A DNA stretch of 59,279 nt, filler included. It is 4 parts of 4 records of this genome, joined end to end, with 100 filler letters (N's around TTAATTAATTAA, not from the genome) between each part and the next. Parts side by side here need not be neighbours in the genome. Positions count along the whole stretch, not along the records: positions 34,214 to 52,989 come from DRR378314_475; 3 more parts are not named here. One strand, given 5' to 3'. Below, piece after piece: positions 26,948-50,100 of this stretch. Position 1 is the first letter of the stretch; each line of letters starts with the position of its first letter. A program made the position numbers and the translations under genes. The notes below the pieces were generated by a model. It was not told the origin of the DNA. It made no database searches and worked only from the letters and a program-made list of their open reading frames with translations.

Positions 26948-27708
26948 TGCGACCCTCGCCCGTAGATCCGGGCCTGTTTTTGCGACAGGCGGGCGGTGTC
27001 CATGATCAGGCAGACATCTACAGTGTTAAAGGCGTGATCGACAAAGGCCCCCTCGCCCACATAGCCGCCGAGCCGCAGATAGGCCTTGATCAGGCTGGGT
27101 ACCTGCAACATCGCGGCTTTGCGGTCCAAGGCCTCAGGTGGGATCATGTTCATATCCTGGAAACTCTCTTCAAGTGCGCGCACTCGCAGGTCCGCTGGTG
27201 CCAGATGGCGATGGTGCAACAGTGACAGCGGCGCGGCCAGCGCCTGCACATCGGTGCCGGGGAAGCTCGCCACACCAAACAGAACCTCAATCTCATGCAG
27301 GGCCACATACTCAGCCAGAGCTGACCAAAGATGGTGCATCGCCATGCCGCCACGATAATCGGGATGCAAACAGGATCGGCCCAATTCCAGCAGGCGGCGG
27401 TTGGAGGTCAACAAGGGCGTCAGATCATATTCCGAGGCGCAATAGTGCCGCCCTGCCCGCGCCGCCTGTTCTGGCCGCAGCAAACGGTATACGCCAACCA
27501 CCGCATCGCTGTGCCGGTCCACCAACAGTAAATGATCGCAAAAGGCGTCCAACGCGTCCTGCTCAAGTCCGGCGGCGTGATCGACCAATGGGCCACCGCC
27601 GCCCAGCTCGCGGATGAAAACGTCAAAGCGCAACCGCTGTGCCGCGCGCAGATCTTCAGGTGATTGCGCCAGCCTGACGTCAAAGTCCGGGGAGGTGGTT
27701 TGGGTCAT
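26944..27708 (-). CDS. olsB: Ornithine N-acyltransferase (GNAT fold)
   Basis: AAQRLRFDVF, CDHLL, VGVYRL, ELGRSC, PSLIKAYLRLG, DHAFNTVD. Confidence 0.85.
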   Translation of the reverse strand: MTQTTSPDFDVRLAQSPEDLRAAQRLRFDVFIRELGGGGPLVDHAAGLEQDALDAFCDHLLLVDRHSDAVVGVYRLLRPEQAARAGRHYCASEYDLTPLLTSNRRLLELGRSCLHPDYRGGMAMHHLWSALAEYVALHEIEVLFGVASFPGTDVQALAAPLSLLHHRHLAPADLRVRALEESFQDMNMIPPEALDRKAAMLQVPSLIKAYLRLGGYVGEGAFVDHAFNTVDVCLIMDTARLSQKQARIYGRGSQ

Positions 27709-27855
27709 GGGCAGCTCAAGCTCCGCATTGGGATAAACCCTGTACCATCTGCGCGGCTTTGGAGGCAGGTCGAGCTTGTAAAATTATACTCTGAGTTGTA
27801 TAGTTTAATACAACACAACCTTGCATCAGTTCCGTTAATCATTTGGAAACCATGT

Positions 27856-34213: not shown

Positions 34214-34271
34214 TAATCCTGAATTTTATATGGAGAAACATAACCCAAATGTATATAAAGGAAAAGATAAA

Positions 34272-34443
34272 ACTAATGACACCGTATAAAATTAACCAGC
34301 CCGGCAAGCTGGTCTGGCGGGTTTCATGTTCTCGCCTACTTGCGAAACTCCTCCGACGCCCAAAAGGGTGGCAGTACGGATTTTCTACCTGCCTACTGGC
34401 AGGCAGGCGCAACCAATCTTTTACAAACACATTAGCAATAAGC
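34272..34443 (+). repeat. Intergenic palindromic repeat, attC-like, family A copy 1
   Basis: Homologous to 36570-36760 (CCTC...CAAAA..GTGGCAG.ACGG.TTTTCTACC...CGCAAC...TACAAACA); outer arms CTAATG/CATTAG and GTATAAAATT/AATCTTTTAC. Confidence 0.65.
34388..34407. repeat. REP-like short palindrome CCTGCCTACTGGCAGGCAGG
   Basis: Related copies at 36672-36691 and 52974-52989. Confidence 0.65.
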
Positions 34444-34456
34444 AATAACAAAAAAA

Positions 34457-34966
34457 ATGAACCTACCGCCATTTAACATATTTCCTACCTTGTCAACGGA
34501 AAAAATAATGTTGAGAGAAATTCTGATTTCTGACATTCCAGATATTGTCGAAATTTCGTTTTATAATGCTAAACAGGCTGAGAACCTTGAACAGGCTATA
34601 GAAATGCACGAAAGAATAAATCAAGATTATCGCAATGGCAATTCTATTCATTGGGGCATTTCGCATAGAACAACAAATAAAATTATGGGAACTTGCGGAT
34701 ATTATCGAGGACTTGAAACTGGAACTGGAGAACTTGGATGTGTTTTATTACCAATGTTCCGTGGCCAAGGAATTATGACTAATGCTATGAAATTAGCAAT
34801 TGACTTTGGACTGTATAAAATAGAACTAAACCGAATTATGGCAATAACCAATAAGCAAAACCAAAGTGCGATAAAATTATTAGATCGCCTAAATTTCATA
34901 AAAGTTGATGATTTACTAAATGAAGAAGTTAAATATGAATTTAAAAGTCAATTAAAATCGAAATGA
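34457..34966 (+). CDS. RimJ/RimL-type GNAT acetyltransferase
   Basis: FPTLSTEKIMLRE, MGTCGY, ELGCVL...RGQGIMT, NQSAIKLL. Confidence 0.85.
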   Translation: MNLPPFNIFPTLSTEKIMLREILISDIPDIVEISFYNAKQAENLEQAIEMHERINQDYRNGNSIHWGISHRTTNKIMGTCGYYRGLETGTGELGCVLLPMFRGQGIMTNAMKLAIDFGLYKIELNRIMAITNKQNQSAIKLLDRLNFIKVDDLLNEEVKYEFKSQLKSK

Positions 34967-35003
34967 ACAGGAGTAAACTAAAAATGCCTACTGTTAATAA
35001 TGG

Positions 35004-35738
35004 TTATTAGTCCATGGCAGTCTGTAGGACTACAGGGTCTTTATGCCTCATCTTGACCTACTCAAGAATGACTTTCGGGTTATCACATATAGCAGGAGAT
35101 ATAATTATCCCAATAACAATGGATATAAGGAAGGTACTCCTTTTATCCCCATGACCTAGGCTAGGGATCTTGAGAGGCTTATAAATGGAATTGGAGTTGA
35201 TAAATTTCACTTAATTGGACATTCTTATGGTGGACTTATAGCTATAGCCTATGCCAATAAGCACCAGGATAAACTTAAATCACTGATAGTTTCAGAACCT
35301 CCAATGCTAAATATTAAAGGTTGCGCGGAATCCTTAAGGATTACTAATGAGAGATTAATAGAAAAGGTAGGTGCCGCTTTTAAAACCAATGACTCCACTC
35401 TAGTTATGAAGTCCATATTTGAGTTTTTTGTGGGTAAAGATATCCAAAATGACATACCTCCTGAGGCGCTTAATACACTTAAAGCGAATTTAATTGAAAT
35501 GAAAGCATTATTGAGTTCTGAAAATCCCTTCCCAAATTTTAATACCGAGTTTGATTTACCTGTGATGATATTTACCTCTGAACACACAATGCCTATTTTG
35601 AGGTGCACTAATGAGATCCTTATTGGCAATATGCCAAACGCCAAACATGTTCATATATCAGATTCTACGCATGATATGTGGATGAGTCAACCTGAAATAA
35701 TGTCCAATCACGTTAGAAGTTTTATTTCACAGCAATAA
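35004..35738 (+). pseudogene. Alpha/beta hydrolase pseudogene (5'-truncated, two in-frame TAG)
   Basis: One frame reads LLVHGSL*DYRVFMPHL...RVITYSRRY...MT*ARDL...IGHSYGG...STHDMW; stops at 35025 and 35157. Confidence 0.8.
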
Positions 35739-35801
35739 ACGGGGCCAAAAAGTTGATGGTAAGTATAAAATACGTTTTACAACTATTGGCAGTTATATAA
35801 C

Positions 35802-36008
35802 CTAATCCCAATCGGAATCTTCCAAAGTAAAGATTTCGCTGATTTCAACTTCAAAAATCTGTGCTAACCTCAATGCTAAAACTGTTGATGGAACATATTT
35901 TCCTAGTTCCATTGCATTAATGGTTTGTCTACTAACTTTTGCCAGGTTCGCTAATTCAGCTTGAGTAATATTCTTTTTTGCTCTTTCGACTTTAATATTA
36001 TTCTTCAT
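35802..36008 (-). CDS. XRE/Cro-family HTH transcriptional regulator
   Basis: ITQAELA..VSRQTINAMELGKYVPS..LALRLA. Confidence 0.92.
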   Translation of the reverse strand: MKNNIKVERAKKNITQAELANLAKVSRQTINAMELGKYVPSTVLALRLAQIFEVEISEIFTLEDSDWD

Positions 36009-36474
36009 AATTAGCTGATTTTTTAAGTTTGGAAATTTGCCAATTAAATCTGATTATAAAAAACAATAAAACTGTGAACATATTGAATATCATAACCCAT
36101 AAAAAGGAAAAATCAAAAACAAACAAAATCGAAAATAAAAGAATTCCGTAGTTGAAATAAACAGCCCAAACCAAGGACTCCAATCTTATTTTAGATATAT
36201 ATTCATCTTCTGATTTTTCTTTGGAAAAAGCGACAAATAAAGAACTGATAATAATTAAAATCCCGAAAATTTCATTCAGAATATTATTATTGACCATTCC
36301 GAATAATTTTTTATCTGTAAAAAAGTCATCTATAAAAATAGCAGGGACATTGACACCTAAAAAACTTGGTTCATATTCGTAAATAAGTGTTACCAACCCA
36401 ACAATAGCAGATGGAATAAGAATAAGCCAACCGATTCTTTTGAACTTATTCGGAAATAAATAATTTGTTTTCAT
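35998..36474 (-). CDS. Membrane protein paired with XRE regulator
   Basis: Four TMs, FSKEKSEDEYISKIRLESL motif; overlaps regulator start; start MKTNY. Confidence 0.8.
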   Translation of the reverse strand: MKTNYLFPNKFKRIGWLILIPSAIVGLVTLIYEYEPSFLGVNVPAIFIDDFFTDKKLFGMVNNNILNEIFGILIIISSLFVAFSKEKSEDEYISKIRLESLVWAVYFNYGILLFSILFVFDFSFLWVMIFNMFTVLLFFIIRFNWQISKLKKSANYEE

Positions 36475-36500
36475 ATTACATAGATTTAATTTTAAACAAA

Positions 36501-36563
36501 TGTAAAACAAATAAAACTATTTGACAAATAAACTTTACATTTAGTAAAACAAACACTACGAAA
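36501..36563. promoter_or_regulatory. Three 21-nt-period operator-like repeats upstream of the membrane protein/XRE pair
   Basis: TGTAAAACAAATAAAACTATT / TGACAAATAAACTTTACATTT / AGTAAAACAAACACTACGAAA at 36501, 36522, 36543. Confidence 0.5.
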
Positions 36564-36567
36564 ATGC

Positions 36568-36761
36568 CTTATATAAATATTCAGCCCTATAAGCCGGTCT
36601 AGCGAATTGCTAGTTATAGACCCCTTTCGATGATCCTCTTAGGCGCAAAAACGTGGCAGGACGGTTTTCTACCACCTTACCGGCAGGCAAGTTAGGTTTG
36701 TATTTATTAATTTAGTAGCTGAAACACGCAACTATCTATATACAAACAGTTTGTGTATCAT
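36568..36761 (+). repeat. Intergenic palindromic repeat, attC-like, family A copy 2
   Basis: Aligns by eye with 34340-34440; ends CGCAACTATCTATATACAAACAGTTTGTGTATCAT. Confidence 0.65.
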
Positions 36762-36781
36762 AAAAAAATATTAAAGAACTT

Positions 36782-37561
36782 TTGAAGATCATCGAATCCA
36801 TAGCAAACGATTTTTATCACTCATTTTACGAAAAGGAATGGAATGGTGAGGAAACCTTAGTACGAAATCTTTCAATTAAAGAAGCTTATAAAGTACAGGA
36901 CTTGGTAACGAAAAGAAGAATCGAATCTGGAGAAACTGTGGCAGGATTTAAAGTAGGATGCACAAGCAGTTCGATTAGGAGACAGTTTGGTTTAAGTGAG
37001 CCGATTAATGGAAAGCTATTTTACCCACACACTACAGAAAATCAAGTAAATATTGATTGGAGCAATTACATTAACTGTGCTATTGAACCAGAAATGGTCT
37101 TTAGGATCGGAAAAAATCTTGAAGGGAAAAACCTTTCTGATAAGGATCTAATAAGTGCTATTGACTATATCAGCCCTGGAATTGAAATCCATGAATTCAA
37201 TTTTTGGATTAAACCACCGACCATTCAAGAACTAATTTGTACAGGAGGCATTCATACTGGACTTATTATAGGAAGCCAAAGAGTTTCCCCTGAAGGTTTA
37301 CAATTCAAAGATGAGAAGTTTGCGGTTTATAAGAATAATTCCTTCATAATGTCTGCACCTGCATCAGAGATTATGGGAGGTCCTCTTCACTCATTAAGAT
37401 GGTTGGTAAATTTTCTAACTGATAAAGGCTTGTCTTTAGAAAAAGGAAACTTGGTAATCCCAGGCTCTCCTGTTGAACTCGTAAATATTGATCAGGATAC
37501 CGAGTTGAAAGTTGTGATTGATAATGTAGGAAGTGTAACTGCTAATTTTAAGAAAAAATAA
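36782..37561 (+). CDS. 2-keto-4-pentenoate hydratase / FAH-family protein
   Basis: AYKVQ, GFKVGCTS, EPI.G.L, IEPEMVF, MGGPL.SL.WL, VIPGS; TTG start. Confidence 0.85.
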   Translation: MKIIESIANDFYHSFYEKEWNGEETLVRNLSIKEAYKVQDLVTKRRIESGETVAGFKVGCTSSSIRRQFGLSEPINGKLFYPHTTENQVNIDWSNYINCAIEPEMVFRIGKNLEGKNLSDKDLISAIDYISPGIEIHEFNFWIKPPTIQELICTGGIHTGLIIGSQRVSPEGLQFKDEKFAVYKNNSFIMSAPASEIMGGPLHSLRWLVNFLTDKGLSLEKGNLVIPGSPVELVNIDQDTELKVVIDNVGSVTANFKKK

Positions 37562-37714
37562 CCGAAATAGTTGGATAGAAGAGTTCTCATATTTTATTTG
37601 AATATGTCGTGATTAAAAACAACGCTGCACCACACTTCTTTAAATTTCATAGCCACCCTTTGGGATGGCAAAAATATTTAACCTAACCGCTAGAGTGCAC
37701 TTAGAGTCAATATA

Positions 37715-38293
37715 ATGAAAAACAAGTACTATCATACCAAAGAATCAGTAGAAGAATACATTAAGCTGGCAAAAGATGTGGACAGTCGGGAATTAATAGA
37801 GAAGTTTAAACGCGTCTTACCTAAAGAATCGCTAGTATTAGAAATTGGCTCCGGTCCGGGAACAGATTGGAAAATCCTAAGTACAATATTCCGAGTGGTT
37901 GGATCAGACAGCTCGACATTATTTATAGAATATCTCCGAAATAATTATCCTGGTGGCGAATTCATTGTATTGGACGCAATTACACTCGACACTCAAATAA
38001 AATTTGATGGAATATATTCAAATAAGGTATTGCATCATTTAAAGGATAGCGAATTAGTAGAATCAATTGCCAGGCAATATTCAATAGTAAACCCGAGCGG
38101 GATTGTTTGCCATTCATTCTGGAAAGGGAAAGGCTCTGAAGTTTTTAAGGGCATGTTTGTTAATTATCAAACCGAAGAAACCCTTAAAGAAATGTTTGAA
38201 GATTACTTTGAAATCTTATCTATAGAACAATATAAAGAATTTGAAGAATCAGATTCCCTTGTATTGATAGGCCGGAAAAGAAACGCACTTTAA
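37715..38293 (+). CDS. Class I SAM-dependent methyltransferase
   Basis: VLEIGSGPG, FDGIYSNKVLHH. Confidence 0.88.
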   Translation: MKNKYYHTKESVEEYIKLAKDVDSRELIEKFKRVLPKESLVLEIGSGPGTDWKILSTIFRVVGSDSSTLFIEYLRNNYPGGEFIVLDAITLDTQIKFDGIYSNKVLHHLKDSELVESIARQYSIVNPSGIVCHSFWKGKGSEVFKGMFVNYQTEETLKEMFEDYFEILSIEQYKEFEESDSLVLIGRKRNAL

Positions 38294-38390
38294 CATAGGC
38301 TCTAGTCCTTGGCACTAATGACTAAGCCTAAACTTTGTATATTTAAGAAACTCCTGGTCAAGATAGGCAGTTAGCTATAATAAGAACAAA

Positions 38391-38993
38391 ATGAATATTG
38401 CATACATACTATTTGACGAAATAACACTTTTGGATTTTATTGGATTTTATGACCCCATAAAAAACATGAAAACCAAAGGGTTTATTAAAAATCTGAATTG
38501 GGACCTATGTGCAACCAAAAAATCGATAAAGGATAGTTTTGGACTAGAAATTATTGTTGATAAAATTAAACCTGATTTGTCAGATTATGATATGATAGTT
38601 GTGCCTGGTGGATATGGAACAAGAAATCTTCAATACAATACTGATTTCATTGAATGGTTAAAAACTGGAAAAAATGTTGAATATGTAGTTTCAATTTGTA
38701 CAGGAAGTTTATTGATTGGAGCCGCTGGGTTTTTAGAAAACAAAACTGCTACGACTAATTTTAATGAATATAAATCATTGGAAAAGTATTGTAAAAAGGT
38801 TGTCCATGAAAGAATAGTGGATGACCAAAATACCATAACAGCCGGAGCAGTTGCGTCCTCATTGGATTTGGGATTATACATCTCTGAAAAACTTATCGGA
38901 AAAGAAAAAACAGAAGAAATACGAATTGGTATGGACTATCATCCAGAAAAATTTGAAATACTTACTGTAGCAAAAAATGGCAGTATCAAATAG
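38391..38993 (+). CDS. DJ-1/PfpI family protein
   Basis: TLLDFIG, VPGGYG, SICTGS, ITAGAVAS. Confidence 0.9.
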   Translation: MNIAYILFDEITLLDFIGFYDPIKNMKTKGFIKNLNWDLCATKKSIKDSFGLEIIVDKIKPDLSDYDMIVVPGGYGTRNLQYNTDFIEWLKTGKNVEYVVSICTGSLLIGAAGFLENKTATTNFNEYKSLEKYCKKVVHERIVDDQNTITAGAVASSLDLGLYISEKLIGKEKTEEIRIGMDYHPEKFEILTVAKNGSIK

Positions 38994-39066
38994 GGCATTC
39001 GGTGGATCACGAAAGTTTATCGCCTTCTTTTTCCCTACTTGCCAAATAATAAACACAGTGTCCAAT
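38961..39066 (+). repeat. Intergenic palindromic repeat, attC-like, family B (short copy)
   Basis: CAAATAGGGCATTCGGTGGATCACGAAAGTTTATCG...CCCTACTTGCCA matches the minus strand of 57880-58085. Confidence 0.75.
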
Positions 39067-39091
39067 AACTGAACTATTAAAAAGTTAAAAA

Positions 39092-40069
39092 ATGAAGGCT
39101 GCAATACGAAGGAAATATTGTTTTCCAAATCAAATAAAAATTGAAAATATTGATAAACCAATTCCCAATGAAGGTGAAATATTAATTAAGGTTTATGCCA
39201 CTACAGTGAACAGGACAGATTGTGCCAATCTAACAGCTAAACCTTTTATAATGAGATTTGTACTAGGATTATTCAGGCCAAGAAAAACAATATTGGGGAC
39301 AGATTTTGCAGGTGAGGTTGTATCGGAAAGTGAAAAATATAATTTAGGTGAGAAAGTATTTGGGTTTACTGATACAGGTTCAGAATCGCAAGCAGAATAT
39401 ATGATAGTGAAAGAGGATGAACTATTTCCTATCCCTGAAAAAATAGATTATAAACAAGCGGCCTCCAGTCTGGAAGGAGCTCATTATGCCTATACTTTCA
39501 TACATAAAGTAGATATCAAGGACGGGCAAAAAATATTGATAAATGGGGCAACTGGCGGAATTGGTTCAGCTCTTCTACAATTTGTAAGACAATACAATGT
39601 CCAAATTACAACTACGTGCAATACAAAAAATATCGAGCTAATAAGATCATTAGGTGCCGATAAAATTATTGATTATACCAAAGAAGATTTTACAAATGAT
39701 AATGATAAGTATGATTTTATATTTGATGCGGTTGGTAAAAGTACTTTTGCAAAATGTAAACCATTACTAAAAGAAAAGGGAATTTATATATCTTCCGAAC
39801 TTGGACCTTATTCTCAAAATATACTTTATGCAATTACCTCCTTTTTTACCAATCAAAAGGTGATTTTTCCAATACCCTATGACAAGAAGAAAACGATTCC
39901 CTTTATAAGGAATCTGTTGAAAGAAGGTAAGTTCAAACCAGTGATCGATAGAGAATATGAAATAGAGGATATCACTAAAGCGTATGAATATGTAATGCAG
40001 GGACAGAAAACGGGAAACGTAGTAATTAATATTTATAATACAAATCTAAAGGCGACAGTCAGGGTTTAA
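39092..40069 (+). CDS. NAD(P)-dependent MDR-family oxidoreductase
   Basis: ILGTDFAGEV, LINGATGGIG, PVIDREY, KTGNVVI. Confidence 0.9.
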   Translation: MKAAIRRKYCFPNQIKIENIDKPIPNEGEILIKVYATTVNRTDCANLTAKPFIMRFVLGLFRPRKTILGTDFAGEVVSESEKYNLGEKVFGFTDTGSESQAEYMIVKEDELFPIPEKIDYKQAASSLEGAHYAYTFIHKVDIKDGQKILINGATGGIGSALLQFVRQYNVQITTTCNTKNIELIRSLGADKIIDYTKEDFTNDNDKYDFIFDAVGKSTFAKCKPLLKEKGIYISSELGPYSQNILYAITSFFTNQKVIFPIPYDKKKTIPFIRNLLKEGKFKPVIDREYEIEDITKAYEYVMQGQKTGNVVINIYNTNLKATVRV

Positions 40070-40379
40070 TCTCTATTATAAAGTAATTTAGGCCCTATAA
40101 TAGCCGATGTTCTGGTTATGGATTATTGGATAGATTTGTAATACTGCAACAAAGCCTTGAGGGCTGTTGAATTGTTCGTGGATTTTCCACTAGAAAATCA
40201 CGACAATTAACTAACTTTATTATAACGGGAAAATCCCACCGAATTCACCCCCAACTATTTATATAAAAAAAGTTATTTGATAAAGGTGCAGGTAATACGT
40301 TCTACAATTGGACGGAGATAAGCAAAATCTACAGGCTAAAGCGGCAAAGAGAATCAATGAAAAACTAAAGAGAATTCCT

Positions 40380-40829
40380 ATGAAAAAAGAAGCGCTTAAT
40401 TGGTTGGGTGAGTTGGCCATAATTCACGCTACGGGTAACGATACAAACGGCAAATATTGTATTGTTGAGCTTTATGCTACAAAAGAAGGCAGTCCCCCGT
40501 GGCATGTTCACCATAGGGAGGATGAAGGTTTTTATGTAATTGACGGTGAGTTGACCTTGTACGTTGGTGATAAAAGTTATAAGGCCAAAAACGGAGATTA
40601 TTTATTGGCCCCAAAAGACATACCGCATACTTATACAGTAGATTCCCCAGGACATGCAAGAATATTAATGATTTGTTCGCCTGCAGGATTTGAAGATTGC
40701 GTTCGTGCAATGAGCACTCCGGCCACATCACTTGTTCCCCCCGAACCGGAAAATGCGGAAACCGACTTTGGGAAAATTATGAATATAGCAGCTGAATATG
40801 GCGTTGAGTTTGTAGAGGCTCCTGTATAA
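40380..40829 (+). CDS. Cupin-domain protein (quercetin 2,3-dioxygenase-like)
   Basis: PPWHVHHREDEGFYVIDGEL and PKDIPHTY cupin motifs; start at MKKEAL uncertain. Confidence 0.8.
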   Translation: MKKEALNWLGELAIIHATGNDTNGKYCIVELYATKEGSPPWHVHHREDEGFYVIDGELTLYVGDKSYKAKNGDYLLAPKDIPHTYTVDSPGHARILMICSPAGFEDCVRAMSTPATSLVPPEPENAETDFGKIMNIAAEYGVEFVEAPV

Positions 40830-40883
40830 TAAATAGTACCAAAACACTTTAATTGGAATATTAATTTTGAAAAAACGCATAAG

Positions 40884-41609
40884 ATGAAAATTTGTGCAGC
40901 ACAGACAAAATCTGAAAAAGGGAATATAAAGGCCAATATCGAAAACCATTTGAAATGGATTGAACTTGCCGTCTCCGAAAAAACAGACTTGATCGTTTTC
41001 CCTGAATTATCCTTGTTAAATTATGAACCGGAAATCGCAAAGGATTTTGCGACTGATCAAAATGATTTGAGATTGGAGGTGTTTCAAGCAATTAGCGACA
41101 CGAAAAGTATTACAATTGGAGTTGGTATGCCTACCAAAACGGAATCCGGAATTTTAATTAGCACCCTTATTTTTCAACCAAACCTGCCACGACAAACTTA
41201 TTCCAAGCAAATTCTGCATCCGGACGAAAAGCCGTACTTTATTGAAGGGAGCGAACAGACTATTTTGTCTATTAAGGACTCGAAAATTGCCCTTGCCATT
41301 TGTTACGAGTCATTACAGCCCGAACATTCCAAAAATGCACATGGAATGGGAGCAGAGGTTTATTTGGCCAGCGTAGCAAAATCACAAGCGGGAATGGAAA
41401 AAGCGAACACGGACTATCCAAAAATAGCGAACAAATATTCAATGCCAGTTTTAATGGCCAACTGCATCGGGTTTTGCAACAACACCCTAAGTGCCGGACA
41501 AACATCAGTTTGGGACGCTAATGGAATTTTAATCGGACAACTCGATAGTCAAAGCGAGGGATTGTTGATCTATGATACGGTATCAAAATCAACCTATTCT
41601 TTAAACTAA
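40884..41609 (+). CDS. Carbon-nitrogen hydrolase (nitrilase superfamily)
   Basis: FPELS, YSKQ.LH.DE, ICYES giving the E-K-C triad. Confidence 0.9.
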   Translation: MKICAAQTKSEKGNIKANIENHLKWIELAVSEKTDLIVFPELSLLNYEPEIAKDFATDQNDLRLEVFQAISDTKSITIGVGMPTKTESGILISTLIFQPNLPRQTYSKQILHPDEKPYFIEGSEQTILSIKDSKIALAICYESLQPEHSKNAHGMGAEVYLASVAKSQAGMEKANTDYPKIANKYSMPVLMANCIGFCNNTLSAGQTSVWDANGILIGQLDSQSEGLLIYDTVSKSTYSLN

Positions 41610-41799
41610 GTTTCATAGACTTTCCAATCAAATCAATAAGCCTAAACCAGAATGTAAAAAATATACTTTTAATTCCCATAATTCGTCAGAATAGCGCAGG
41701 TTACTCCCTATTTAATATATTCGGACAAAACCGTAACTTACTTCCATATTAATATTAGACCGAAGTTGTTGGCGAACAGCGACATAACAAACGAATAAA

Positions 41800-42228
41800 A
41801 TGGGGGAACTGAAAGTAAAAACAAACCCTAAAGTAGATGCAGTCTTTGCCAACTATCCCGACTTTGTTCGGGATAAGATGCAAGCGTTACGGGAATTGGT
41901 CCTTGAAACAGCGGAAGAAACCGAAGGAGTTTACCAATTGGAAGAAACCCTAAAATGGGGAGAACCAAGTTTTGTAACCAAAGATGGTAGTACCTTGCGA
42001 ATGGACTGGAAAGAAAAAACACCCGACCAGTACGCTATGTATTTTCATTGCTCAAGTAGACTGGTAGATATATTTAGATTGGTTTTCAACCACAAATTTC
42101 AATACGAAGGTAAACGGGCCATAGTTTTTAAATTAAATCAGAAAATTCCAAAAGCTGAATTGAAGGAATGTATTAAAGCTACATTGACCTATCATAAAGT
42201 AAAACAATTGATTACATTGGGAATTTGA
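41800..42228 (+). CDS. DUF1801 (YdhG-like) protein
   Basis: LRELV, EETLKWGEPSF, GSTLRMDWK, EGKRAI. Confidence 0.85.
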   Translation: MGELKVKTNPKVDAVFANYPDFVRDKMQALRELVLETAEETEGVYQLEETLKWGEPSFVTKDGSTLRMDWKEKTPDQYAMYFHCSSRLVDIFRLVFNHKFQYEGKRAIVFKLNQKIPKAELKECIKATLTYHKVKQLITLGI

Positions 42229-42309
42229 GGAATTGAGGGAGAAAATAGATACAGTAATCTCCATATAATGAACACCTATAAATATAATTGAACACAAGTT
42301 GTTTAATTA

Positions 42310-43539
42310 CTACAATTCGGCCAGTATCTTATAAACAAGAAAAACAATGCATAGCAGGGCGGCAAGTAACGGCAGTAAAAACTTCCGGTTTCCCCAACAT
42401 TTCTTTCTGCCATAATCGTTAATGGCCAACTTGGTCTGTGAGAGATTTACCATTGTAAAAACGCTTATGACCACATAGCTTGTAGTATTGGCCAGTTCAA
42501 CAATAGGAACGAAAATGGCGAGAACCATAATCCCAATGGCTATGGCCAGGGTGGCCAGTATTGGAGTACGGTACTTCTTATGTACTTGATGAAACAATTT
42601 GGGTGCATTGTTCTGCCCTGCCATTCCGTAAAGGACCCTTGACCCCATTATGAGCTGTGCCAATACACCATTTAAAACGGCAACCAAACTAATTAGACTA
42701 ATAATATAGGCATAATGCTGCTCCTTATTCGCAACTATTTCCGCCATAGGCGCATCGGTGGCAATAAGTTCGTTCAATGGCAAGGCAATTACGGCAACCA
42801 CAGCTACAGCTACATACAGGAACAACGCAATGAACAAACTGCCCATAATGGCTACAGGCATGCTCTTTTGCGGATTTTTGGCCTCCTCCGCAACATTTGC
42901 CAAATCTTCGAACCCAACAAAGGCATAAAAGGCCAAGAAAGCACCCTGAAACACTGCAAAGATATCATAGCCAGGTGCCGCAAGGAACATTTGGGAAAAC
43001 TGGGAAGTGAATTTCTCCAAATCTATGCCTGCCACAAAAATAACAAATAGAAGCCCCCCTACCTCAATCAGGGTTATTAACCCAATTACGTTCAAAGATT
43101 CCCCAATACCCCAGATGGCAAGTAAACATAGTAGTGTCATACTTACGATGATCACAACAGCATCCGGGAATTCAATAAACACGTTCAGGTAGCCAACAAA
43201 TCCTTTGAGAATGGCAGCAGCAGAAATAAACCCGGTAAATATTACTCCCCATCCCACCAAGGAGGCCAATCGTTTTGAGTTGAATGCCTTGTTTACATAG
43301 ATTATTTCCCCACCACTTTTCGGAAACCGCGGGGCAAGAAGGGAATAGGAGTATGCGGTTAATCCTGCCAAAACCCCTGCAAGTAGGAAGGAAAGAGGCG
43401 CCAGTGTTCCGGAATACCCGGCTACCTTGCCCACCAGCACATAAATACCTGCTCCCAACATGGTCCCAACACCGTATAGGAGTATTTGAACTGTACCCAA
43501 TTGTTTCTTTAACCCAACCTCTTCATTAACTTCATTCAT
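42310..43539 (-). CDS. APC family amino acid permease
   Basis: GTMLGAGIY, FYAFVGFE, EEAKNPQK, SRVLYGMA, RTP. Confidence 0.9.
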   Translation of the reverse strand: MNEVNEEVGLKKQLGTVQILLYGVGTMLGAGIYVLVGKVAGYSGTLAPLSFLLAGVLAGLTAYSYSLLAPRFPKSGGEIIYVNKAFNSKRLASLVGWGVIFTGFISAAAILKGFVGYLNVFIEFPDAVVIIVSMTLLCLLAIWGIGESLNVIGLITLIEVGGLLFVIFVAGIDLEKFTSQFSQMFLAAPGYDIFAVFQGAFLAFYAFVGFEDLANVAEEAKNPQKSMPVAIMGSLFIALFLYVAVAVVAVIALPLNELIATDAPMAEIVANKEQHYAYIISLISLVAVLNGVLAQLIMGSRVLYGMAGQNNAPKLFHQVHKKYRTPILATLAIAIGIMVLAIFVPIVELANTTSYVVISVFTMVNLSQTKLAINDYGRKKCWGNRKFLLPLLAALLCIVFLVYKILAEL

Positions 43540-43589
43540 ACCTCCAAGTTTTCCTTTAATTTAAGGGACTAAAGCGCTTTCAGAATTTT

Positions 43590-44858
43590 CTAACTGGAAT
43601 TAACTTCCGTTTTCCCTATCCCCATGCGTCGAGCTTGGATTCCTATTAGGGGACCAGCGAGAATTGAGGACAGGAGCGCTGAAAATACGATAGCCACAAA
43701 TATTGCCTGTCCAATGAGTTCCAATTCTATGGCCAGAGTAGCAACCACAATTTCCATGGCACCTCCGGGAATAAAGATCAAGCCCATTAAAATAGATGTT
43801 TGTTGAGATTGCTTGCCCAATTTTGCTCCTAACCAGGCACCAATAAATTTACCCAAAATGGCAACTATACAGAATATAACAGTTGGCCATAATTCCAGTC
43901 CCACCAAAAAATCGATTTTGATACCAAGTGTCGCAAAAAAGAGGGGTACAAAAATAGCGTGCAAAGTATCCGAAACGCTATTGCGAAGCTCATCTGTTAC
44001 TCGTTTGGCACTTCCCGCCATGGTACCTGCTAGGAAGAATCCCAGAATAGCATGAATTCCCATCCACTGCGTGATGGCTCCACAAAGCAATCCAACACTT
44101 ACAATTAGAGTCTGTGCAGCTGCAGGCTGTGGCAATGAAGTTCCTTCGACTCGCTTTAAGGCAAAATTCAATACCTTGGCCCCAACGGCAATACTTACTA
44201 TAATAAAGGCGATTACCAGCAATGCCCTTCCGCCCAATTCCATGACACCCATTGCATGGGCCGTTACCATTGACATTACCACAGTAAACAATAACCATCC
44301 AAAAATGTCATTGATAGCACAGGCCGAAAGGGCAAGGGACGCTTGTGGCGTTTTATTGATTCCAAGATCACCCAAGGCGCGCGCCACGACCGAGATGGCA
44401 GTGATAGAACATGCTACGGACAAAAATAAGGGGAAGGTAATACCTGTGGCGGCCTCTCCCCAATAAATAGGGTCATATGAGCTAAAAATAGGATAGCCAA
44501 TGGCAATGGGAAACAACACCCCGACAATGCCGATTAAAATAGACGCACGACCACTTCGGAGCGCATGCCCCACATTTACATGAAACCCTGAGGATAATAA
44601 GAGAAAAAAGACCCCTAGCCAAGAAACCGTTTCCAACATTATGTATTGGGGTTCGCTATCAGGAAAAAGCATGTTTTGTAAGTCTGGAGATACCCGGCCA
44701 AGTAAGGTTGGCCCCAAAATAACGCCAGCTAAAATTTCACCGGCCAAAGCGGGAATTTTTATGGATTCACAGATAACACCAAGGGTTCGTGCAACCCCAA
44801 GAAGAACGAGGATCTGAATAATAAAAAGTAGAATATGGCTTTCGTTGAGGTAATGCAT
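43590..44858 (-). CDS. CPA2 cation:proton antiporter
   Basis: GEILAGVILGPT, SITAISV.AR, INDIFGW, FVPLFF, GKFIG. Confidence 0.88.
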   Translation of the reverse strand: MHYLNESHILLFIIQILVLLGVARTLGVICESIKIPALAGEILAGVILGPTLLGRVSPDLQNMLFPDSEPQYIMLETVSWLGVFFLLLSSGFHVNVGHALRSGRASILIGIVGVLFPIAIGYPIFSSYDPIYWGEAATGITFPLFLSVACSITAISVVARALGDLGINKTPQASLALSACAINDIFGWLLFTVVMSMVTAHAMGVMELGGRALLVIAFIIVSIAVGAKVLNFALKRVEGTSLPQPAAAQTLIVSVGLLCGAITQWMGIHAILGFFLAGTMAGSAKRVTDELRNSVSDTLHAIFVPLFFATLGIKIDFLVGLELWPTVIFCIVAILGKFIGAWLGAKLGKQSQQTSILMGLIFIPGGAMEIVVATLAIELELIGQAIFVAIVFSALLSSILAGPLIGIQARRMGIGKTEVNSS

Positions 44859-45135
44859 ATCAATATTTTATCCTATAGTAATCATATTAGAGTGTATTAA
44901 GTACCTCTGAAAATTGCACTTGGCCAATTGCCAACATAATATCTCCGGTAGTCCAAATCTCCCTTTATATGTTATTCTGATGTTATTATATCCAATGAAG
45001 CGAAACCTCCAATTTTACTTGGACACCCCCTGATAGGTTTCATTACCGTACTGCCCCTATCCATAACTTGGGATGCCTAAAAATCGGTTAAAACAGTAAT
45101 ACTATTAAATAATGGAACAATGTTTTATTTAAGGT

Positions 45136-45960
45136 TTATGCCTCCTTTTGAAAAGTAAAAAGTGGTATTCTAGTTTGAAATGCCGTATTTTGGGTGACGC
45201 TCTTTTGAAATACCTTTTCTAAAAAGTTTGTATGATGGGTAAACATGATTACCATATCGGCGTCAACGTCGGCCACAAAATTATTGATGCCCAATACAAC
45301 GGAGTTGATTTTTAGTTCGGTCATTTTTATCTTTTGATAAGAAAAATCTTTTATTAAACTCTTTTCCTTTTGCTGTAGATCCCCTTCAAAACCCTCATCA
45401 TCCTTATCAATATGAAGAATTTGAATCCATGCATCCATTAATTTTGCGAAAGGGATAATTAGATCAAGCTCTTTCTCAAGATTGTAAAAGTCGCTGGAGT
45501 ATACAATGTTTTTGATACCCTTATATCGGGCAAATTCAGGAATGGTAAGCACAGGGATACTACTTTTCTCTATTATACTGGCGGCATTACTACCAAAAAG
45601 AATCTTTTTAAGCCCACTGGCACCTTTGGTTCCGATACAAACAATATCGATATCATTTTTTAGGGCGGTCGTCTCAACGTATTTTCCTATAGACGTACCT
45701 GAGGTAATTTCATAGCTTATATCTACATTATGGCTATTATCTTTTTTTATAGACGCCAAAAGTTCTTTCATTGCCCTTTCCGAACTAGTTTTTATGGCCT
45801 CTTGAAGTTTATGGGAACCCACTCTGGCCATTGAAGGTGTATTGGTGTCTATTACATGGAGCAACATAAGCTTTACTTCCAAGTCCTTGCTCATATCTAC
45901 AGCATACTTGATCGCTACCTTGGATAATTCCGAAAAATCTGTTGGGATTAAAATTCTCAT
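45136..45960 (-). CDS. Universal stress protein (tandem USP)
   Basis: ILIPTDFS, IGTKGASG...FGSNA, PVLTIP. Confidence 0.92.
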   Translation of the reverse strand: MRILIPTDFSELSKVAIKYAVDMSKDLEVKLMLLHVIDTNTPSMARVGSHKLQEAIKTSSERAMKELLASIKKDNSHNVDISYEITSGTSIGKYVETTALKNDIDIVCIGTKGASGLKKILFGSNAASIIEKSSIPVLTIPEFARYKGIKNIVYSSDFYNLEKELDLIIPFAKLMDAWIQILHIDKDDEGFEGDLQQKEKSLIKDFSYQKIKMTELKINSVVLGINNFVADVDADMVIMFTHHTNFLEKVFQKSVTQNTAFQTRIPLFTFQKEA

Positions 45961-46016
45961 ATAAAAACTGTTTTAGGTTTATACTTTAAAAATATCCAAC
46001 TCCTGGGTCAAATAAT

Positions 46017-46030
46017 ATGATATTGGTCAT
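46017..46030. promoter_or_regulatory. Crp/Fnr-like palindrome upstream of USP gene 1
   Basis: ATGATATTGGTCAT 57 nt upstream of start; counterpart at 47137. Confidence 0.5.
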
Positions 46031-46238
46031 CCCTAGTAATAATATATGACGGACCCACATGTTCTACCAGCCTTAAACATATCTAAACTATAAAATGTTG
46101 TGGTCTTTTTAATGAACTCCGGGAGTAGGTAGTCTTCCTGTTGGCTCCTGTTGTAGTGCTTAGCACTCCCCTTTAACCTTTTATTCCAAGCCAGGCGCAT
46201 TGCCCAAGTCCTGAAAATCTGTCACAGGGCTTTCAACC

Positions 46239-47078
46239 TCATCTTCTAATCTCGTGTAAGGCCAACACCGGAATGCCAGTGTGATAATTAAGGTTCTTCA
46301 CCATTGGCCTTGATAAAATCATTCCAAAAAAACTATGTCTTCTATTAATGAAGGAAACCATATCACTCCCACGACTTTCTATAAATGAATTGATTGCAGC
46401 TTGAACATCTTTATTTTTTAGGGTATGAAACGAGTAGTCCAGATCTTCAAAATAATCCTTTAATAAATTTTTATTATTGACTTGATCCTCATCAAGACTT
46501 TCATTTTTATTAACCACATTTAGCACTACAATGGACGAATTGGACATTTTTGCTATGTCGACCAAATATTGAAATTCACGCCTTTTAAAGGTTGTTCTAT
46601 AATCTGTTGGAAAAACAATTTCCTTTATTTCCTTATAGATCGTTTTTGATGGGATGGCTAGCACGGGACAATTTCTGATTTCTTCCATAGCAAGCACCGT
46701 TTGGCTCCCGAATATTTCAATTCTGGAATTCGTTGCTCCCTGAGTGCCCATGACAACCATTTCGATATCCTGTTTATCAACCATGGTCTTAATTATGTCC
46801 AATAGATTACCACATTCGGATACCACGTGGAATTCATGATTCCTTGAATTATCATCATGTGATAGCCACTCAAGAATAACCCTCAAGCCACTGATCGATT
46901 TTTCCCTAAATTCCTCCAAATCCCTAGCAATAGCAAGCTCCATTGTATAGGGTTCTGCATTATACGTATTTAGTATATAAAAAACACAGGTTTCGTTCTT
47001 AAACAGTTTAACTGCATATTCAATGGCGTTTTGGGCGTTTTTTGAAAAATCTGTAGGACAAAGAATTCTTCGTTTCAT
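46239..47078 (-). CDS. Universal stress protein (tandem USP)
   Basis: ILCPTDFS, MGTQGAT...FGSQT, CPVLAIP; start MKRRIL. Confidence 0.92.
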   Translation of the reverse strand: MKRRILCPTDFSKNAQNAIEYAVKLFKNETCVFYILNTYNAEPYTMELAIARDLEEFREKSISGLRVILEWLSHDDNSRNHEFHVVSECGNLLDIIKTMVDKQDIEMVVMGTQGATNSRIEIFGSQTVLAMEEIRNCPVLAIPSKTIYKEIKEIVFPTDYRTTFKRREFQYLVDIAKMSNSSIVVLNVVNKNESLDEDQVNNKNLLKDYFEDLDYSFHTLKNKDVQAAINSFIESRGSDMVSFINRRHSFFGMILSRPMVKNLNYHTGIPVLALHEIRR

Positions 47079-47136
47079 AATAATCAAGTATTTAAACGTT
47101 TAGAATCAAATATATCCTTATAATAATTAGGCAACA

Positions 47137-47150
47137 ATGATATTTATCAG
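47137..47150. promoter_or_regulatory. Crp/Fnr-like palindrome upstream of USP gene 2
   Basis: ATGATATTTATCAG 59 nt upstream of start. Confidence 0.5.
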
Positions 47151-47492
47151 ATAAGCTTCCAATACCAGTTCTCTGAAAATGAACCTATAGAAGAGCCGAT
47201 CGCCTTAGGTATTATTATATTATGCTTTAGGTTTGGCAAATAAGTCCTCCCTCCCACCACTGGGTCCGGTAATGGACAGTTAGATAATGGCCAATGTAAT
47301 TTTATAGTATTAGAGATCACAAAAGATTTCAGACCGCGCTAAACCTTTGCAATATTTAATCCTCTAAATCTATAGTGAAAAACTTGACAATATTTATTTA
47401 AAAAGAAGTTACAAAAGTGTATCCCCCTCTTAACCGTTTTATTTCTTCCGTTATGAATGTTGCCTTCGTTGTGCCAACAACCTGGATGCATC

Positions 47493-48209
47493 CTAAAACA
47501 TGCTATAAAGGGTAGTTACTATTGCCCCTTTACCATCATTGGAAACATGGGATAACAATTGCTTTTCCTCCTTTACCTTCAAATTGAATGGTGGGGCCAA
47601 TAGGTTTAGACCGCTTTGTTTTTTTAACCTAATGCCCTGTCCAGAAATAATATCCTTATTGGGTACAAAATCCCCTTCAGGTAAATGCTCCGTTATCACG
47701 ACATATTTATACTTGGACAACTTACCCGCTACACTATGTACCTCGGCGTTGGATAAATGTTGAAGCACTTGTCTCAATATGGCACAATCCCCGGAAGGCA
47801 GATCATCCATGGCGATATCCAAACATTGGAATTCCAAATTTCCTTTCTCAAATTTTTTCCTATTACGTGCTATAAGCCCTGGTACTATATCTATGCCTGT
47901 GTACTTCTTGGTATGCCTTACCAATTGCTTCCCTACATTAAAATCCCCGCAACCTAAATCGCATACGGAAAGGGGTTCTTTAAAAGAACTCAAGAATGAT
48001 GTTAAAACAGCTATATATGGATTTAAAATTTCAGGATGATGTGACCCTTCACCAGAATAATAATCGGAATTATCACCGCCCCACAGTTTCATTTCATAAA
48101 CCTGTTCCATTGCCGCTTTGGTAGGCCAAGGCTTCTTCTTTATTTTATTTCCAATTTCCTCCTTCTTCACAAACATTAATATTTGCATTATTCTCCGACC
48201 TAAAAACAA
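47493..48209 (-). CDS. SAM-dependent methyltransferase
   Basis: WG...SG.GS, VCDLGCGDF, YTGIDIV, LRQVLQHLSN; start uncertain. Confidence 0.85.
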   Translation of the reverse strand: MFLGRRIMQILMFVKKEEIGNKIKKKPWPTKAAMEQVYEMKLWGGDNSDYYSGEGSHHPEILNPYIAVLTSFLSSFKEPLSVCDLGCGDFNVGKQLVRHTKKYTGIDIVPGLIARNRKKFEKGNLEFQCLDIAMDDLPSGDCAILRQVLQHLSNAEVHSVAGKLSKYKYVVITEHLPEGDFVPNKDIISGQGIRLKKQSGLNLLAPPFNLKVKEEKQLLSHVSNDGKGAIVTTLYSMF

Positions 48210-48266
48210 ACGTACAGCAATAACGCAGATGATAAAACTTATTGAAATACCTTGACTTTGAAAAAT

Positions 48267-48580
48267 TTATGCCAATTTGCTCCTATTTTTTAAAATAACA
48301 AGGGTTACAACATAAATAAGTACGATGGCCAAGGGGATGGCTACAAATCTTAAGTCTGGAAAAAGGTACCACAAAATTACAATACTTACAGTTCTTGCTA
48401 TAGCGTGTACTATGCCTATCCAATGCTTCCAGTAGCAATAAAGAGCACCCAAACCTTAACTTTATCCGAGAAAAACATACCCGAAAAGGCTACCAACAAC
48501 CAAGCTACTAAACCTGAAAGAGGCGTTGCCAAAAATGGACCTTTTGAACATTCCTGTCGTTGTTGCTCCAATGTCTTCAT
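48267..48580 (-). pseudogene. Membrane-protein pseudogene (frame break, probable internal deletion)
   Basis: MKTLEQQRQE...FLATPLSGLVAW...LFIATGSI ends in one frame and KHWIGIVHAIART...ILKNRSKLA continues in another, joined at AAGCATTG (48421-48428). Confidence 0.65.
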
Positions 48581-48599
48581 TCCACAAAATTAAAATAAT

Positions 48600-49298
48600 C
48601 TACCTGGAGACCTGCTTTCCTGTATTATAATTTTTCTCCTTTTTTAGCCCTTTGAACAATAGCCATATGGTAAATGATAGCTCCCCAATTACTCCTGTCA
48701 ATACCACGCCCATTTCAAAATAGGGTCGGTAAATAAGGTAATTTTCATATGCTAATTTTGCTATACCATCCAACATATAACCCATAGCAGCCAGTAGTAA
48801 AAACAGGCCGATAATTTTTGGGATAAAGGTGGATTTCAAACTAAGAAATCCAAGAACTATCAAGTGCAGGCCAAAAATCAATAATCCCAAAGTCCATACT
48901 AAATCAAAATCCGACACAAGATTCATTACTTCGAGTTCCAGGCCATTACCACTCTCCGCTTCGGCTGTGAGTTGGTATGCCCTCCACAATTTTGACAAAG
49001 CTATACCGAAAAAAATAGCATGCATTAGTCGGAAAAAAGAGGCCACAAAAGATAAATTCCTACTGACCGATTGCGTCAAATAGAAAAGTGACCATACCAG
49101 TAGAACATCAAAGAACAACATCACTACAAATCCTAACAGACCGTATCCAAACTGAGAGTGTCGGTTCACAAAATTAGTGACCGTGACAGTTGGGCTCTCC
49201 ATATCCACTAGACTTTCAAGTACAGAAAAATTGGCATAAAAACCTGAAAGAAAAATCATTAAATAGGCTATTCCAGAAATTTTTGCGATTTGTTTCAT
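48600..49298 (-). CDS. DUF4386 family membrane protein
   Basis: AKISGIAYL, GLLIFGLHLIVLG, IPKIIG, GELSFTIWLLFKG. Confidence 0.8.
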   Translation of the reverse strand: MKQIAKISGIAYLMIFLSGFYANFSVLESLVDMESPTVTVTNFVNRHSQFGYGLLGFVVMLFFDVLLVWSLFYLTQSVSRNLSFVASFFRLMHAIFFGIALSKLWRAYQLTAEAESGNGLELEVMNLVSDFDLVWTLGLLIFGLHLIVLGFLSLKSTFIPKIIGLFLLLAAMGYMLDGIAKLAYENYLIYRPYFEMGVVLTGVIGELSFTIWLLFKGLKKEKNYNTGKQVSR

Positions 49299-49451
49299 GC
49301 GTACCATCTTTATGATTTGTGCGAAACTATTGTCTTTAAAATTTAAATATATTGACTTTAGTTAAGATTAACGGGCCTTACCTTGTTCCTAACGGGATTT
49401 TTTTCGAATTTTAAACGGAAATCTAATTAAGAATAATCCAATCTGTGAATA

Positions 49452-50030
49452 ATGTATGACCAACTCATTGGAAATATAAAGGAATTGGTTCCTCTTACCG
49501 AAGATGAATCCAAGCTGATTCAGAAATCGTTTGAGCCCGTATCTCTCAAAAAGAAACAATTTTTACTTCAAAGTGGGGAATACTCCAATCATATGCGCTT
49601 TATTTCCGAAGGATGCGTAAAACTTTTTAGTATAGATGAATTGGGCGCTGAACATATTCTGCAATTTGGAATAAGTGGATGGTGGATCAACGACCTGTAC
49701 GCCTATCTCACCCAGAAACCTGCCACTTTCTTTATTCAGGCCATAACGCAGAGTACAGTGATGCAAATTCATAGGGATAGATTAAATGATCTCTTTGATA
49801 AAATCCATATGATGGATCGATTTTTCCGTATCAAAACCCAAAACGGTTATGTAGCCCTTCAGGAAAGAACGATCAACAATATGAGTCAGTCTGCCGAGCA
49901 ACGTTACCTTGAGTTTATTGGACGTTACCGGGACATAGAACAACAAATTCCTCAATATATGCTTGCCTCCTACTTGGGAGTCACTCCTGAACACCTAAGT
50001 ACAATCCGAAAAAATTTAAGGGATTATTAG
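49452..50030 (+). CDS. Crp/Fnr family transcriptional regulator
   Basis: cNMP-binding-like N-domain, SAEQRYLEF, QYMLASYLGVTPEHLS HTH. Confidence 0.92.
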   Translation: MYDQLIGNIKELVPLTEDESKLIQKSFEPVSLKKKQFLLQSGEYSNHMRFISEGCVKLFSIDELGAEHILQFGISGWWINDLYAYLTQKPATFFIQAITQSTVMQIHRDRLNDLFDKIHMMDRFFRIKTQNGYVALQERTINNMSQSAEQRYLEFIGRYRDIEQQIPQYMLASYLGVTPEHLSTIRKNLRDY

Positions 50031-50035
50031 CGTTC

Positions 50036-50049
50036 TTAAGATACCTTAA
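50036..50049. promoter_or_regulatory. Putative operator for the adjacent Crp/Fnr regulator
   Basis: TTAAG-ATAC-CTTAA palindrome; similar TTGACT-TT-AGTTAA at 49352-49365. Confidence 0.5.
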
Positions 50050-50100
50050 TGAAATAGTTCCCCATGGTTTTGATATTTGCTCCAACAAAATATTTTAATC

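Follow-up and report, generated by a model that had tools for sequence, protein, structure and literature searches.

We analyzed a stretch of 59,279 nucleotides, filler included (the window), made up of four contigs with N...TTAATTAATTAA...N spacers between them; the third contig, at positions 34214-52989, is the one studied here. The first part of this contig, from 34214 to about 42300, carries a run of small genes that probably represents the recombinase-distal, decaying end of a chromosomal cassette array, part of a system that is widespread in Flavobacteriaceae. The original prediction, made from the letters of the window alone, had proposed a decaying array of a Bacteroidota-type capture system with long, noncanonical sites. 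This proposal is supported because of evidence from relatives, namely, a family of sites, a rule of complementarity between the two ends of each cassette, a recombinase beside the arrays, and homology breakpoints, and not because of the statistic that the prediction itself had offered.

A family of hairpin sites in Flavobacteriaceae

Two GC-rich elements of the window, near 34296-34410 and 36585-36695, align to each other. A first exact pattern drawn from them was too narrow and returned only two near-identical contigs from metagenome-assembled genomes (MAGs), L001 (G002:C43, 4.3 kb) and L002 (G003:C447, 1.9 kb), which are 98.5% identical to window positions 35795-40086 and 35786-37727, respectively. 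In one of the two MAGs, a related element of ~135 nucleotides (nt) is present in at least 37 copies, many at contig ends, and a second exact pattern yielded at least 120 stretches across Flavobacteriaceae genera. Among the matches listed, the genera with sites include Lacinutrix, Polaribacter, Winogradskyella, Maribacter, Zobellia, and Tenacibaculum. Using a site profile built from 23 copies, we found co-oriented arrays with as many as 10 sites per 8 kb and a spacing of 0.5 to 1.5 kb. The sites sit directly after stop codons, and some copies are single on long contigs.

Of 360 near-full-length sites, AAC is present in 354 and GTT in 351. An alignment of 45 diverse sequences revealed a 13-bp stem with compensatory double changes at 9 pairs. 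The family therefore has attC-type hairpins bounded by AAC and GTT; in the window, one site (S1) has GAC and ATT at these positions and another (S2) keeps GTT. The structure emerged only from the 45-sequence alignment and not from single-sequence folds; folded singly, the two GC-rich elements were no better than their shuffles (z, -1.58 to +0.80). A generic repeat finder reported chance-level repeats only and overlooked the sites because of their indels.

The bases outside AAC and GTT differ between sites. When we compared the 10 bases after one GTT (in the start of a cassette, R') with the 10 bases before the next AAC (in its end, R''), at least 7 of 10 were complementary in 190 of 245 consecutive site pairs. 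The mean pairing out of 10 was 7.3 for the two ends of the same cassette, 3.7 for ends of different cassettes, and 3.8 for the two extensions of the same site. Within the 190 good pairs, positions 1 to 9 pair in 187 to 190, and position 11 is an A.C mismatch in 163. Thus, the own-pair complementarity that had been proposed for the window is a rule of the relatives' arrays, while in the window itself it is seen, nominally, in the GNAT and DJ-1 cassettes only.

As to the two MAG contigs, their ends (35795/35786, 37727, and 40086) fall in or beside spacers, and G002 has no close match to the window flank at 42310-52989. The shared block could reflect strain variation, transfer of a multicassette block, or misbinning. 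In a separate locus, an array on the Formosa sp. A9 chromosome (L112, 1664001-1672000) includes a barstar-family cassette. An open reading frame (ORF) of 560 amino acids (aa) with a reverse-transcriptase domain lies just past its last detected site, and no recombinase was found within the 8 kb read.

A Xer-like recombinase adjoins the arrays

The original prediction had suggested looking for a tyrosine recombinase that co-occurs with the repeats, and in relatives such an enzyme adjoins the family arrays. In Lacinutrix mariniflava, a 285-aa recombinase is encoded at 20602-21411 (- strand), and 38 sites on the + strand run from 21885 over 45 kb. In Polaribacter sp. WD7, the recombinase (26982-27779, - strand) is codirectional with 18 site matches (- strand), and in G019:C20, 13 kb separate a recombinase homologue from sites that lie downstream of it on the same strand. 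Two geometries are therefore seen: recombinase and cassettes point away from each other in Lacinutrix (L182 to L184) and in the same direction in Polaribacter WD7 (L185) and G019.

We examined 62 loci encoding relatives of this recombinase for sites in the upstream DNA. Six loci combine a recombinase of 50% or higher identity with 1.3 kb or more of upstream DNA, and family sites are present in this DNA at 5 of the 6; five further loci lie within ~220 nt of a contig end and were not judgeable. Where identity is 46% or less, a family site, and a weak one, was found in 1 of 49 scorable loci. Two loci with a C-terminal match only (53 to 54% identical over it) and no site were set aside. Homologues at 39 to 46% identity (L243 to L289) occur in Flavobacterium, Cytophagales, Saprospiraceae, Chitinophagales, and an uncultured Bacteroidales MAG, and the distant homologues may serve other site families.

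The Lacinutrix enzyme can be aligned over its whole length with XerA and XerD, and the conserved stretches with HxxRH and the C-terminal tyrosine box align as well. XerA is its best model, at 206.7 bits (cutoff, 220), and the integron-integrase model TIGR02249 gives 180.5 bits (cutoff, 265). In none of the 7 genomes searched was the TIGR02249 cutoff reached, and the best matches to this model came in two pieces that skip model positions 177 to 238 or thereabouts. Aligned with IntI4 (2a3v), 26 residues of the recombinase stand opposite 69 residues of the chain, so that ~43 are absent at the insert of IntI4. The array-adjacent enzyme of the relatives thus has no IntI-specific additional domain.

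In an intact array, the cassettes alternate with sites of ~135 nt that start with AAC, end with GTT, and hold the covarying 13-bp stem. Each cassette opens with GTT and about 10 variable bases and closes with the complement of those bases and AAC, and on circularization, the two ends would form a 13-bp stem with one conserved A.C mismatch. The Xer-like tyrosine recombinase at the array head would be the likely catalyst; judged by its sequence and position, it is predicted to act on the family sites, and these would presumably act in folded form. In the organism of the window, the array head would lie beyond the contig start.

Sites and signs of decay in the window

Two and a half recognizable sites remain in the window, and three to five former cassettes are supported. 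The sites and one further structured spacer are as follows.

34262-34448, + strand: site S1, long form of the AAC...GTT hairpin family; core triplets GAC and ATT, plus an additional GC-rich insert
34986 to ~35045, + strand: half site, comprising R'' and the left arm of a family variant known from loci L088 and L137
36565-36767, + strand: site S2, another long form of the family (diverged copy at 36597-36767); the left arm has diverged, but the right arm and GTT (36749-36751) are intact
40070-40219, + strand: structured spacer with two hairpins; folded as single-stranded DNA, z -3.64, with 1 of 200 shuffles as good; nhmmer E 4.1 at 40102-40155

A covariance model, as had been proposed, scored S1 and S2 as sites of the family. 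S1 reached 23.3 bits and an E value of 0.003 over the full length of the model (R1), with an nhmmer E value of 8.7e-7 for 34274-34389; S2 reached 23.2 bits and an E value of 0.0032, with an nhmmer E value of 4.9e-12 for 36605-36758. The next-best match in the window had an E value of 1.5 with nhmmer and 0.22 with the covariance model (filters off). We read the half site from the sequence against the family alignment; the covariance model gave E 9.4 for 34980-35057, which is too short for scoring. The rest of this site was deleted along with the 5' end of the hydrolase gene behind it. The two GC-rich elements from which the first pattern was drawn lie in S1 and S2. These two sites, together with L010 and L196 (561-680), belong to a longer site variant of ~190 nt whose GC-rich insert includes a CCTGCC...GGCAGG hairpin.

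The structured spacer at 40070-40219 is possibly a decayed site interior or a terminator. In its second hairpin, the words GGATTTTC and GAAAATC from the central hairpin of the family recur with their order exchanged. This spacer is the only one of eight that folds better than its shuffles, although degenerate palindromes had been predicted throughout, and spacer length ranges from ~54 to ~310 nt rather than the predicted 100 to 250 nt.

Signs of decay include ATT, GCT, or GTG at core triplets where the family has GTT, the deleted half site, and an in-frame stop in the hydrolase gene. Because core triplets are mutated, a half site is deleted, and the hydrolase gene is broken, the evidence suggests that the cassettes of the window are no longer mobile and that its sites are inactive.

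Genes and units of the window

The gene list of the original prediction was right by Pfam and NCBIfam. Of 12 genes or gene fragments in the array part of the contig, 10 are on the + strand. S1 lies 48 nt from the contig start, in agreement with the prediction that the contig starts mid-array. The genes and units are listed below.

34214-34282, + strand: GNAT-like gene truncated by the start of the contig, with only its 3' end present; the stop codon falls within the left arm of S1
34431-34998, + strand: GNAT cassette; R' 34431-34443, ORF 34457-34966, R'' 34986-34998; Pfam Acetyltransf_3, 1.8e-16
35046-35738, + strand: alpha/beta-hydrolase pseudogene, 5' truncated; Pfam Abhydrolase_1 from profile position 57; in-frame TAG at 35157-35159
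35785-36564, + strand: XRE unit; R' 35785-35797, with ATT replacing GTT; XRE helix-turn-helix gene at 35802-36008, - strand
35998-36510, - strand: unnamed 170-aa ORF of the XRE unit, partner of the XRE helix-turn-helix gene
36749-37630, + strand: hydratase unit, MhpD/HpaH-like; ORF 36782-37561; AAC at 37621-37623
37689-38294, + strand: S-adenosylmethionine-dependent methyltransferase with the predicted end pair, GCT... at 37689 and ...AAC at 38282-38294; Pfam Methyltransf_25
38370-38975, + strand: DJ-1/PfpI cassette; R' 38370-38382, ORF 38391-38993, R'' 38963-38975 inside the end of the ORF
39058-40069, + strand: MDR (zinc-type dehydrogenase); Pfam ADH_zinc_N_2; a GTG-type R'-like box in front, 39058-39070
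40308-42228, + strand: cupin, CN-hydrolase (nitrilase), and DUF1801 genes (Pfam)

The Pfam match of the hydrolase gene begins no earlier than profile position 57, and the gene has an in-frame TAG; it is a pseudogene. The hydratase matches the NCBIfam 2-oxopent-4-enoate hydratase model at 3.6e-30, below its cutoff. At the start of the contig, the DNA of 34214-34282 recurs at 85 to 94% identity in at least 8 other Flavobacteriaceae genomes (including L216 to L219), where it forms the 3' end of a GNAT-like ORF of 168 aa; identity this unusually high across genera suggests a widely shared cassette. No immunity families were found among the Pfam and NCBIfam matches in the window, whose content is enzymes and the XRE regulator.

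The wider assembly looks like a mixed bin, because GC content is split (30 to 44% in the last two contigs versus 45 to 59% in the first two) and because genome G001, which shares 21% of the window's words, matches none of the third contig. G001 must therefore resemble the unrelated high-GC contigs of the window. Along the third contig, GC content is 0.30 to 0.39 over 34 to 42 kb, and parts of the flank are similar (0.355 to 0.373 at 45 to 50 kb). An Rfam search of the contig at E values of 1 or less gave a single weak and unrelated match, DUF805b (E 0.36).

Homology of three units to other genomes breaks off at or near cassette boundaries

Searched against 301 genomes of the family, the region was matched piecewise, gene by gene, with identities that differ between genomes. 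The XRE unit is 84 to 88% identical in three genomes, and the homology runs from their GTT (the ATT at 35785 in the window) to 36559-36564; in L189, a family site follows the homologue. An 84% identical DJ-1 homologue in G051 stands directly behind a family site; the homology sets in precisely with the GTT of 38370 and declines past R''. An 86% identical hydratase homologue in G025 spans 36738-37630, from just before GTT to 7 nt beyond AAC. For the MDR gene, a 72% identical homologue in G019 lies behind a family site of 107 bits; the array that holds it is 13 kb away from a homologue of the recombinase.

Thus, the breakpoints that had been anticipated in relatives were recovered, at GTT or next to it, for the XRE, DJ-1, and hydratase units; cassette status for the methyltransferase, cupin, nitrilase, and DUF1801 genes is without independent support. 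We conclude that the GNAT, XRE-pair, hydratase, and DJ-1 units are former cassettes and that the MDR unit probably is as well.

In the closest relative, G048, DUF1801 (93% identical) and the downstream flank (Usp) are kept at 86 to 93% identity. Upstream of DUF1801, this genome has other genes and 6 family-site fragments, 2 at E values of 1e-6 or less and the rest at 0.0016 to 0.076. G048 is therefore a case of a variable array beside a fixed flank.

Complementarity within the window

The end pairs that had been quoted for the GNAT, methyltransferase, and DJ-1 genes are present at 34431/34986, 37689/38285, and 38370/38961, with 10/13, 8/10, and 11/15 matches as claimed. We compared the upstream spacer of each gene with the 3' region of each gene in an 8 by 8 matrix with 20,000 permutations. 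The mean score out of 13 was 10.25 for own pairs and 10.11 for non-own pairs, and 7,604 of the 20,000 permutations reached the own-pair mean. With GTT/AAC anchors and at most 1 mismatch, the values were 9.75 and 9.34, and 2,365 permutations reached the own-pair mean. The own-pair statistic of the original prediction carries no evidence in the window.

We also set the position of R' in advance and scored 13 positions by the pairing rule of the family, with nominal P values.

GNAT: 11/13, P 0.005; R' set by the site model
DJ-1: 10/13, P 0.048; R' set by the homology breakpoint
Methyltransferase: 10/13, P 0.016; R' chosen in the original prediction and hence not independent
MDR: 9/13, P 0.21
Hydratase: 8/13, P 0.70
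DUF1801: 8/13, P 0.73
XRE unit: 8/13, P 0.79

The MDR, hydratase, DUF1801, and XRE units are at chance level. The GNAT, DJ-1, and methyltransferase pairs all carry the family's C opposite A at position 11, which the original prediction had scored as a mismatch.

Shared cassettes are conserved without the site interior

Among the 245 cassettes, there are 5 pairs of homologous cassettes in different arrays, a small sample. For the two pairs with the highest identity (95 and 93%), the upstream and downstream flanking site interiors are only 76 and 79% identical in one case and 74 and 53% in the other. The background identity of site interiors is 72.7% within arrays and 71.7% between them. In the alignments, identity switches on at GTT and off just past AAC. 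The cassettes of these pairs (L069/L139 and L099/L185) are therefore conserved from GTT to AAC only, with interiors at background identity, and the hydratase (36749-37630) and DJ-1 (38370-38975) units of the window behave in the same way. In this small sample, shared cassettes came without an attC of their own, and the expectation from integrons that each cassette brings its site does not hold in the Flavobacteriaceae family. We rejected homogenization of the interiors within each array as an explanation, because identities within and between arrays are alike.

This uncoupling could be read as the result of crossovers at each of the two ends of a site. An insert-less Xer-like recombinase that uses both strands could make crossovers at the AAC side and at the GTT side of folded sites. 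The mobile unit would then be a bare GTT...AAC cassette, with interiors of ~117 nt left behind, by a mechanism distinct from that of IntI and attC; we offer this tentatively, as a possibility that falls short of being probable. If it is true, gene capture has gone unrecognized in many marine Flavobacteriaceae, and the window is a decayed end state of it.

Alternative explanations

Several observations weigh against the reading of 34214 to about 42300 as the end of an array. As the original prediction had noted for an integrase, no recombinase was found by Pfam on the contig at 34214-52989 or on any of the window's other contigs. Of about 9 spacers, only 2 are matched by the site models, and seven of eight spacers folded as single-stranded DNA were not above their shuffles (z, -1.76 to +1.57). 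In the comparison that the prediction had proposed, own pairs were no better than shuffled pairs, and five of the seven fixed-R' pairs were at chance or not independently chosen. A family site is present at 5 of 29 homologue loci in other genomes, and none was found near the five homologue loci of the methyltransferase (3) and the nitrilase (2). Finally, locus L237 has no site in the 4 kb upstream of its recombinase. A narrower reading takes only 34214 to about 36770 as an array remnant and regards the genes from the methyltransferase onward, perhaps from the hydratase onward, as ordinary accessory genes whose core pairs arose by chance in AT-rich spacers. The lack of any site-model match past 36767, the own-pair statistic at chance, the methyltransferase and nitrilase homologues that stand elsewhere without sites, and the place of DUF1801 in the flank conserved in G048 all agree with it. 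Against these stand the G051 homologue of DJ-1 behind a family site, with homology starting at the GTT of 38370, the G019 homologue of MDR behind another, and the R'-like boxes at 38370 and 39058, which fit the family pattern. We therefore consider this narrower reading unlikely.

The other alternatives concern the nature of the sites themselves. If the repeats were homology arms, with cassettes swapped by RecA-dependent recombination after DNA uptake, shared cassettes without either flanking interior would be expected, as would interiors that form one pool at ~72% identity within and between arrays. It is quite improbable, since the breakpoints are sharp at GTT and AAC and not spread through the repeats, the complementary extensions would have no role in homologous recombination, and a recombinase stands at array heads. 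That the region is a fragment of a classical integron, a cluster of attC sites lacking integron integrases (CALIN), with a true IntI elsewhere in the genome, we regard as very improbable. The AAC...GTT hairpins and the own-pair rule do agree with attC logic, and the accessible text of two reviews reports integrons in Bacteroidota (PMC8618304, PMC9668308). Yet no genome searched reached the TIGR02249 cutoff, the array-adjacent enzyme is without the residues at the IntI4 insert, the accessible part of the IntegronFinder 2.0 report has one complete integron in Bacteroidetes (Salinibacter), and the sites do not travel with the cassettes. Selfish or structural repeats of the miniature inverted-repeat transposable element or repetitive extragenic palindromic kind, or terminators, with no tie to cassette movement, would account for the copies that are single on long contigs and for the position of sites just after stop codons. 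They would not account for co-oriented arrays with a spacing of 0.5 to 1.5 kb beside a recombinase or for extensions that pair across the cassette and not across the repeat; an element moving alone would have terminal inverted repeats, and the same-site mean (3.8 of 10) gives no sign of them. This explanation is extremely improbable.

Comparison with known systems

Integrons are the textbook gene-capture system, and the insert of IntI is thought essential for recognizing folded attC sites. Many genera of marine Flavobacteriaceae show the same array logic, in arrays of tens of kilobases and next to a recombinase that has no such insert. If the recombinase is the catalyst, capture of cassettes at folded sites needs no IntI insert. 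The window adds a picture of how such an array decays at its distal end.

Xer/dif systems share with the Flavobacteriaceae arrays a recombinase that aligns end to end with XerA and XerD. They differ in their sites: dif sites are double stranded and ~28 bp long, whereas the Flavobacteriaceae sites are ~135 nt long with a covarying hairpin and variable outer arms.

The closest published system, which we compared by description only, is rAID-1 of gut Bacteroidales, the recombinase-associated acquired interbacterial defense clusters (Ross et al., bioRxiv 10.1101/471110). As set out in the accessible text of that preprint, rAID-1 belongs to the same phylum, and an XerD-family recombinase heads a series of short, co-oriented, low-GC genes; its authors regard the repeated intergenic motifs as reminiscent of integrons (10.1101/471110). 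The criteria given there are a recombinase at least 44% identical to BF9343_RS08045 of B. fragilis, immunity-gene content, and at least 2 codirectional downstream genes with a GC content of 41% or less and repeated intergenic motifs (10.1101/471110). Here, in contrast, the hosts are Flavobacteriaceae and the genes of the window are enzymes (GNAT, methyltransferase, DJ-1, and dehydrogenase). Orphan immunity genes do not dominate the array in the window, and the Formosa array holds a barstar cassette. In their accessible text, neither Ross et al. (10.1101/471110) nor a 2025 preprint that repeats their definition gives a mechanism. The rAID-1 arrays are poorly understood, and they would gain culturable relatives for tests of mechanism should the recombinase prove to be the catalyst.

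In the literature, we found no description of the Flavobacteriaceae system, in a search that did not cover supplements (the motifs in fig. S4 of Ross et al. and the per-genome tables of IntegronFinder 2.0). Two reviews, in the text accessible to us, count Bacteroidota among the phyla with integrons (PMC8618304, PMC9668308), and the accessible text on IntegronFinder 2.0 gives one complete integron, in Salinibacter, for the whole phylum Bacteroidetes. Smyshlyaev et al. describe, in the part available, the insert of integron integrases as essential for integron function.

Sedentary chromosomal integrons and CALINs resemble the Flavobacteriaceae arrays in being long, co-oriented arrays of small unrelated genes. 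As in integrons, the sites are imperfect hairpins (...AAC, GTT...), the two ends of a cassette are complementary, the array is headed by a tyrosine recombinase, and the distal end decays. The differences lie in the enzyme, the sites, and the behavior of the cassettes. The Flavobacteriaceae recombinase is XerA/XerD-like, without the IntI-specific insert, and is divergent from the array in some genomes and codirectional with it in others; the sites are ~135 to 190 nt long, with 9 or 10 cassette-specific paired bases versus the 4 of integrons. In contrast to the integron case, shared Flavobacteriaceae cassettes bring no site along, and this is the new point: their conservation runs from GTT to AAC and takes in neither of the site interiors on the two sides.

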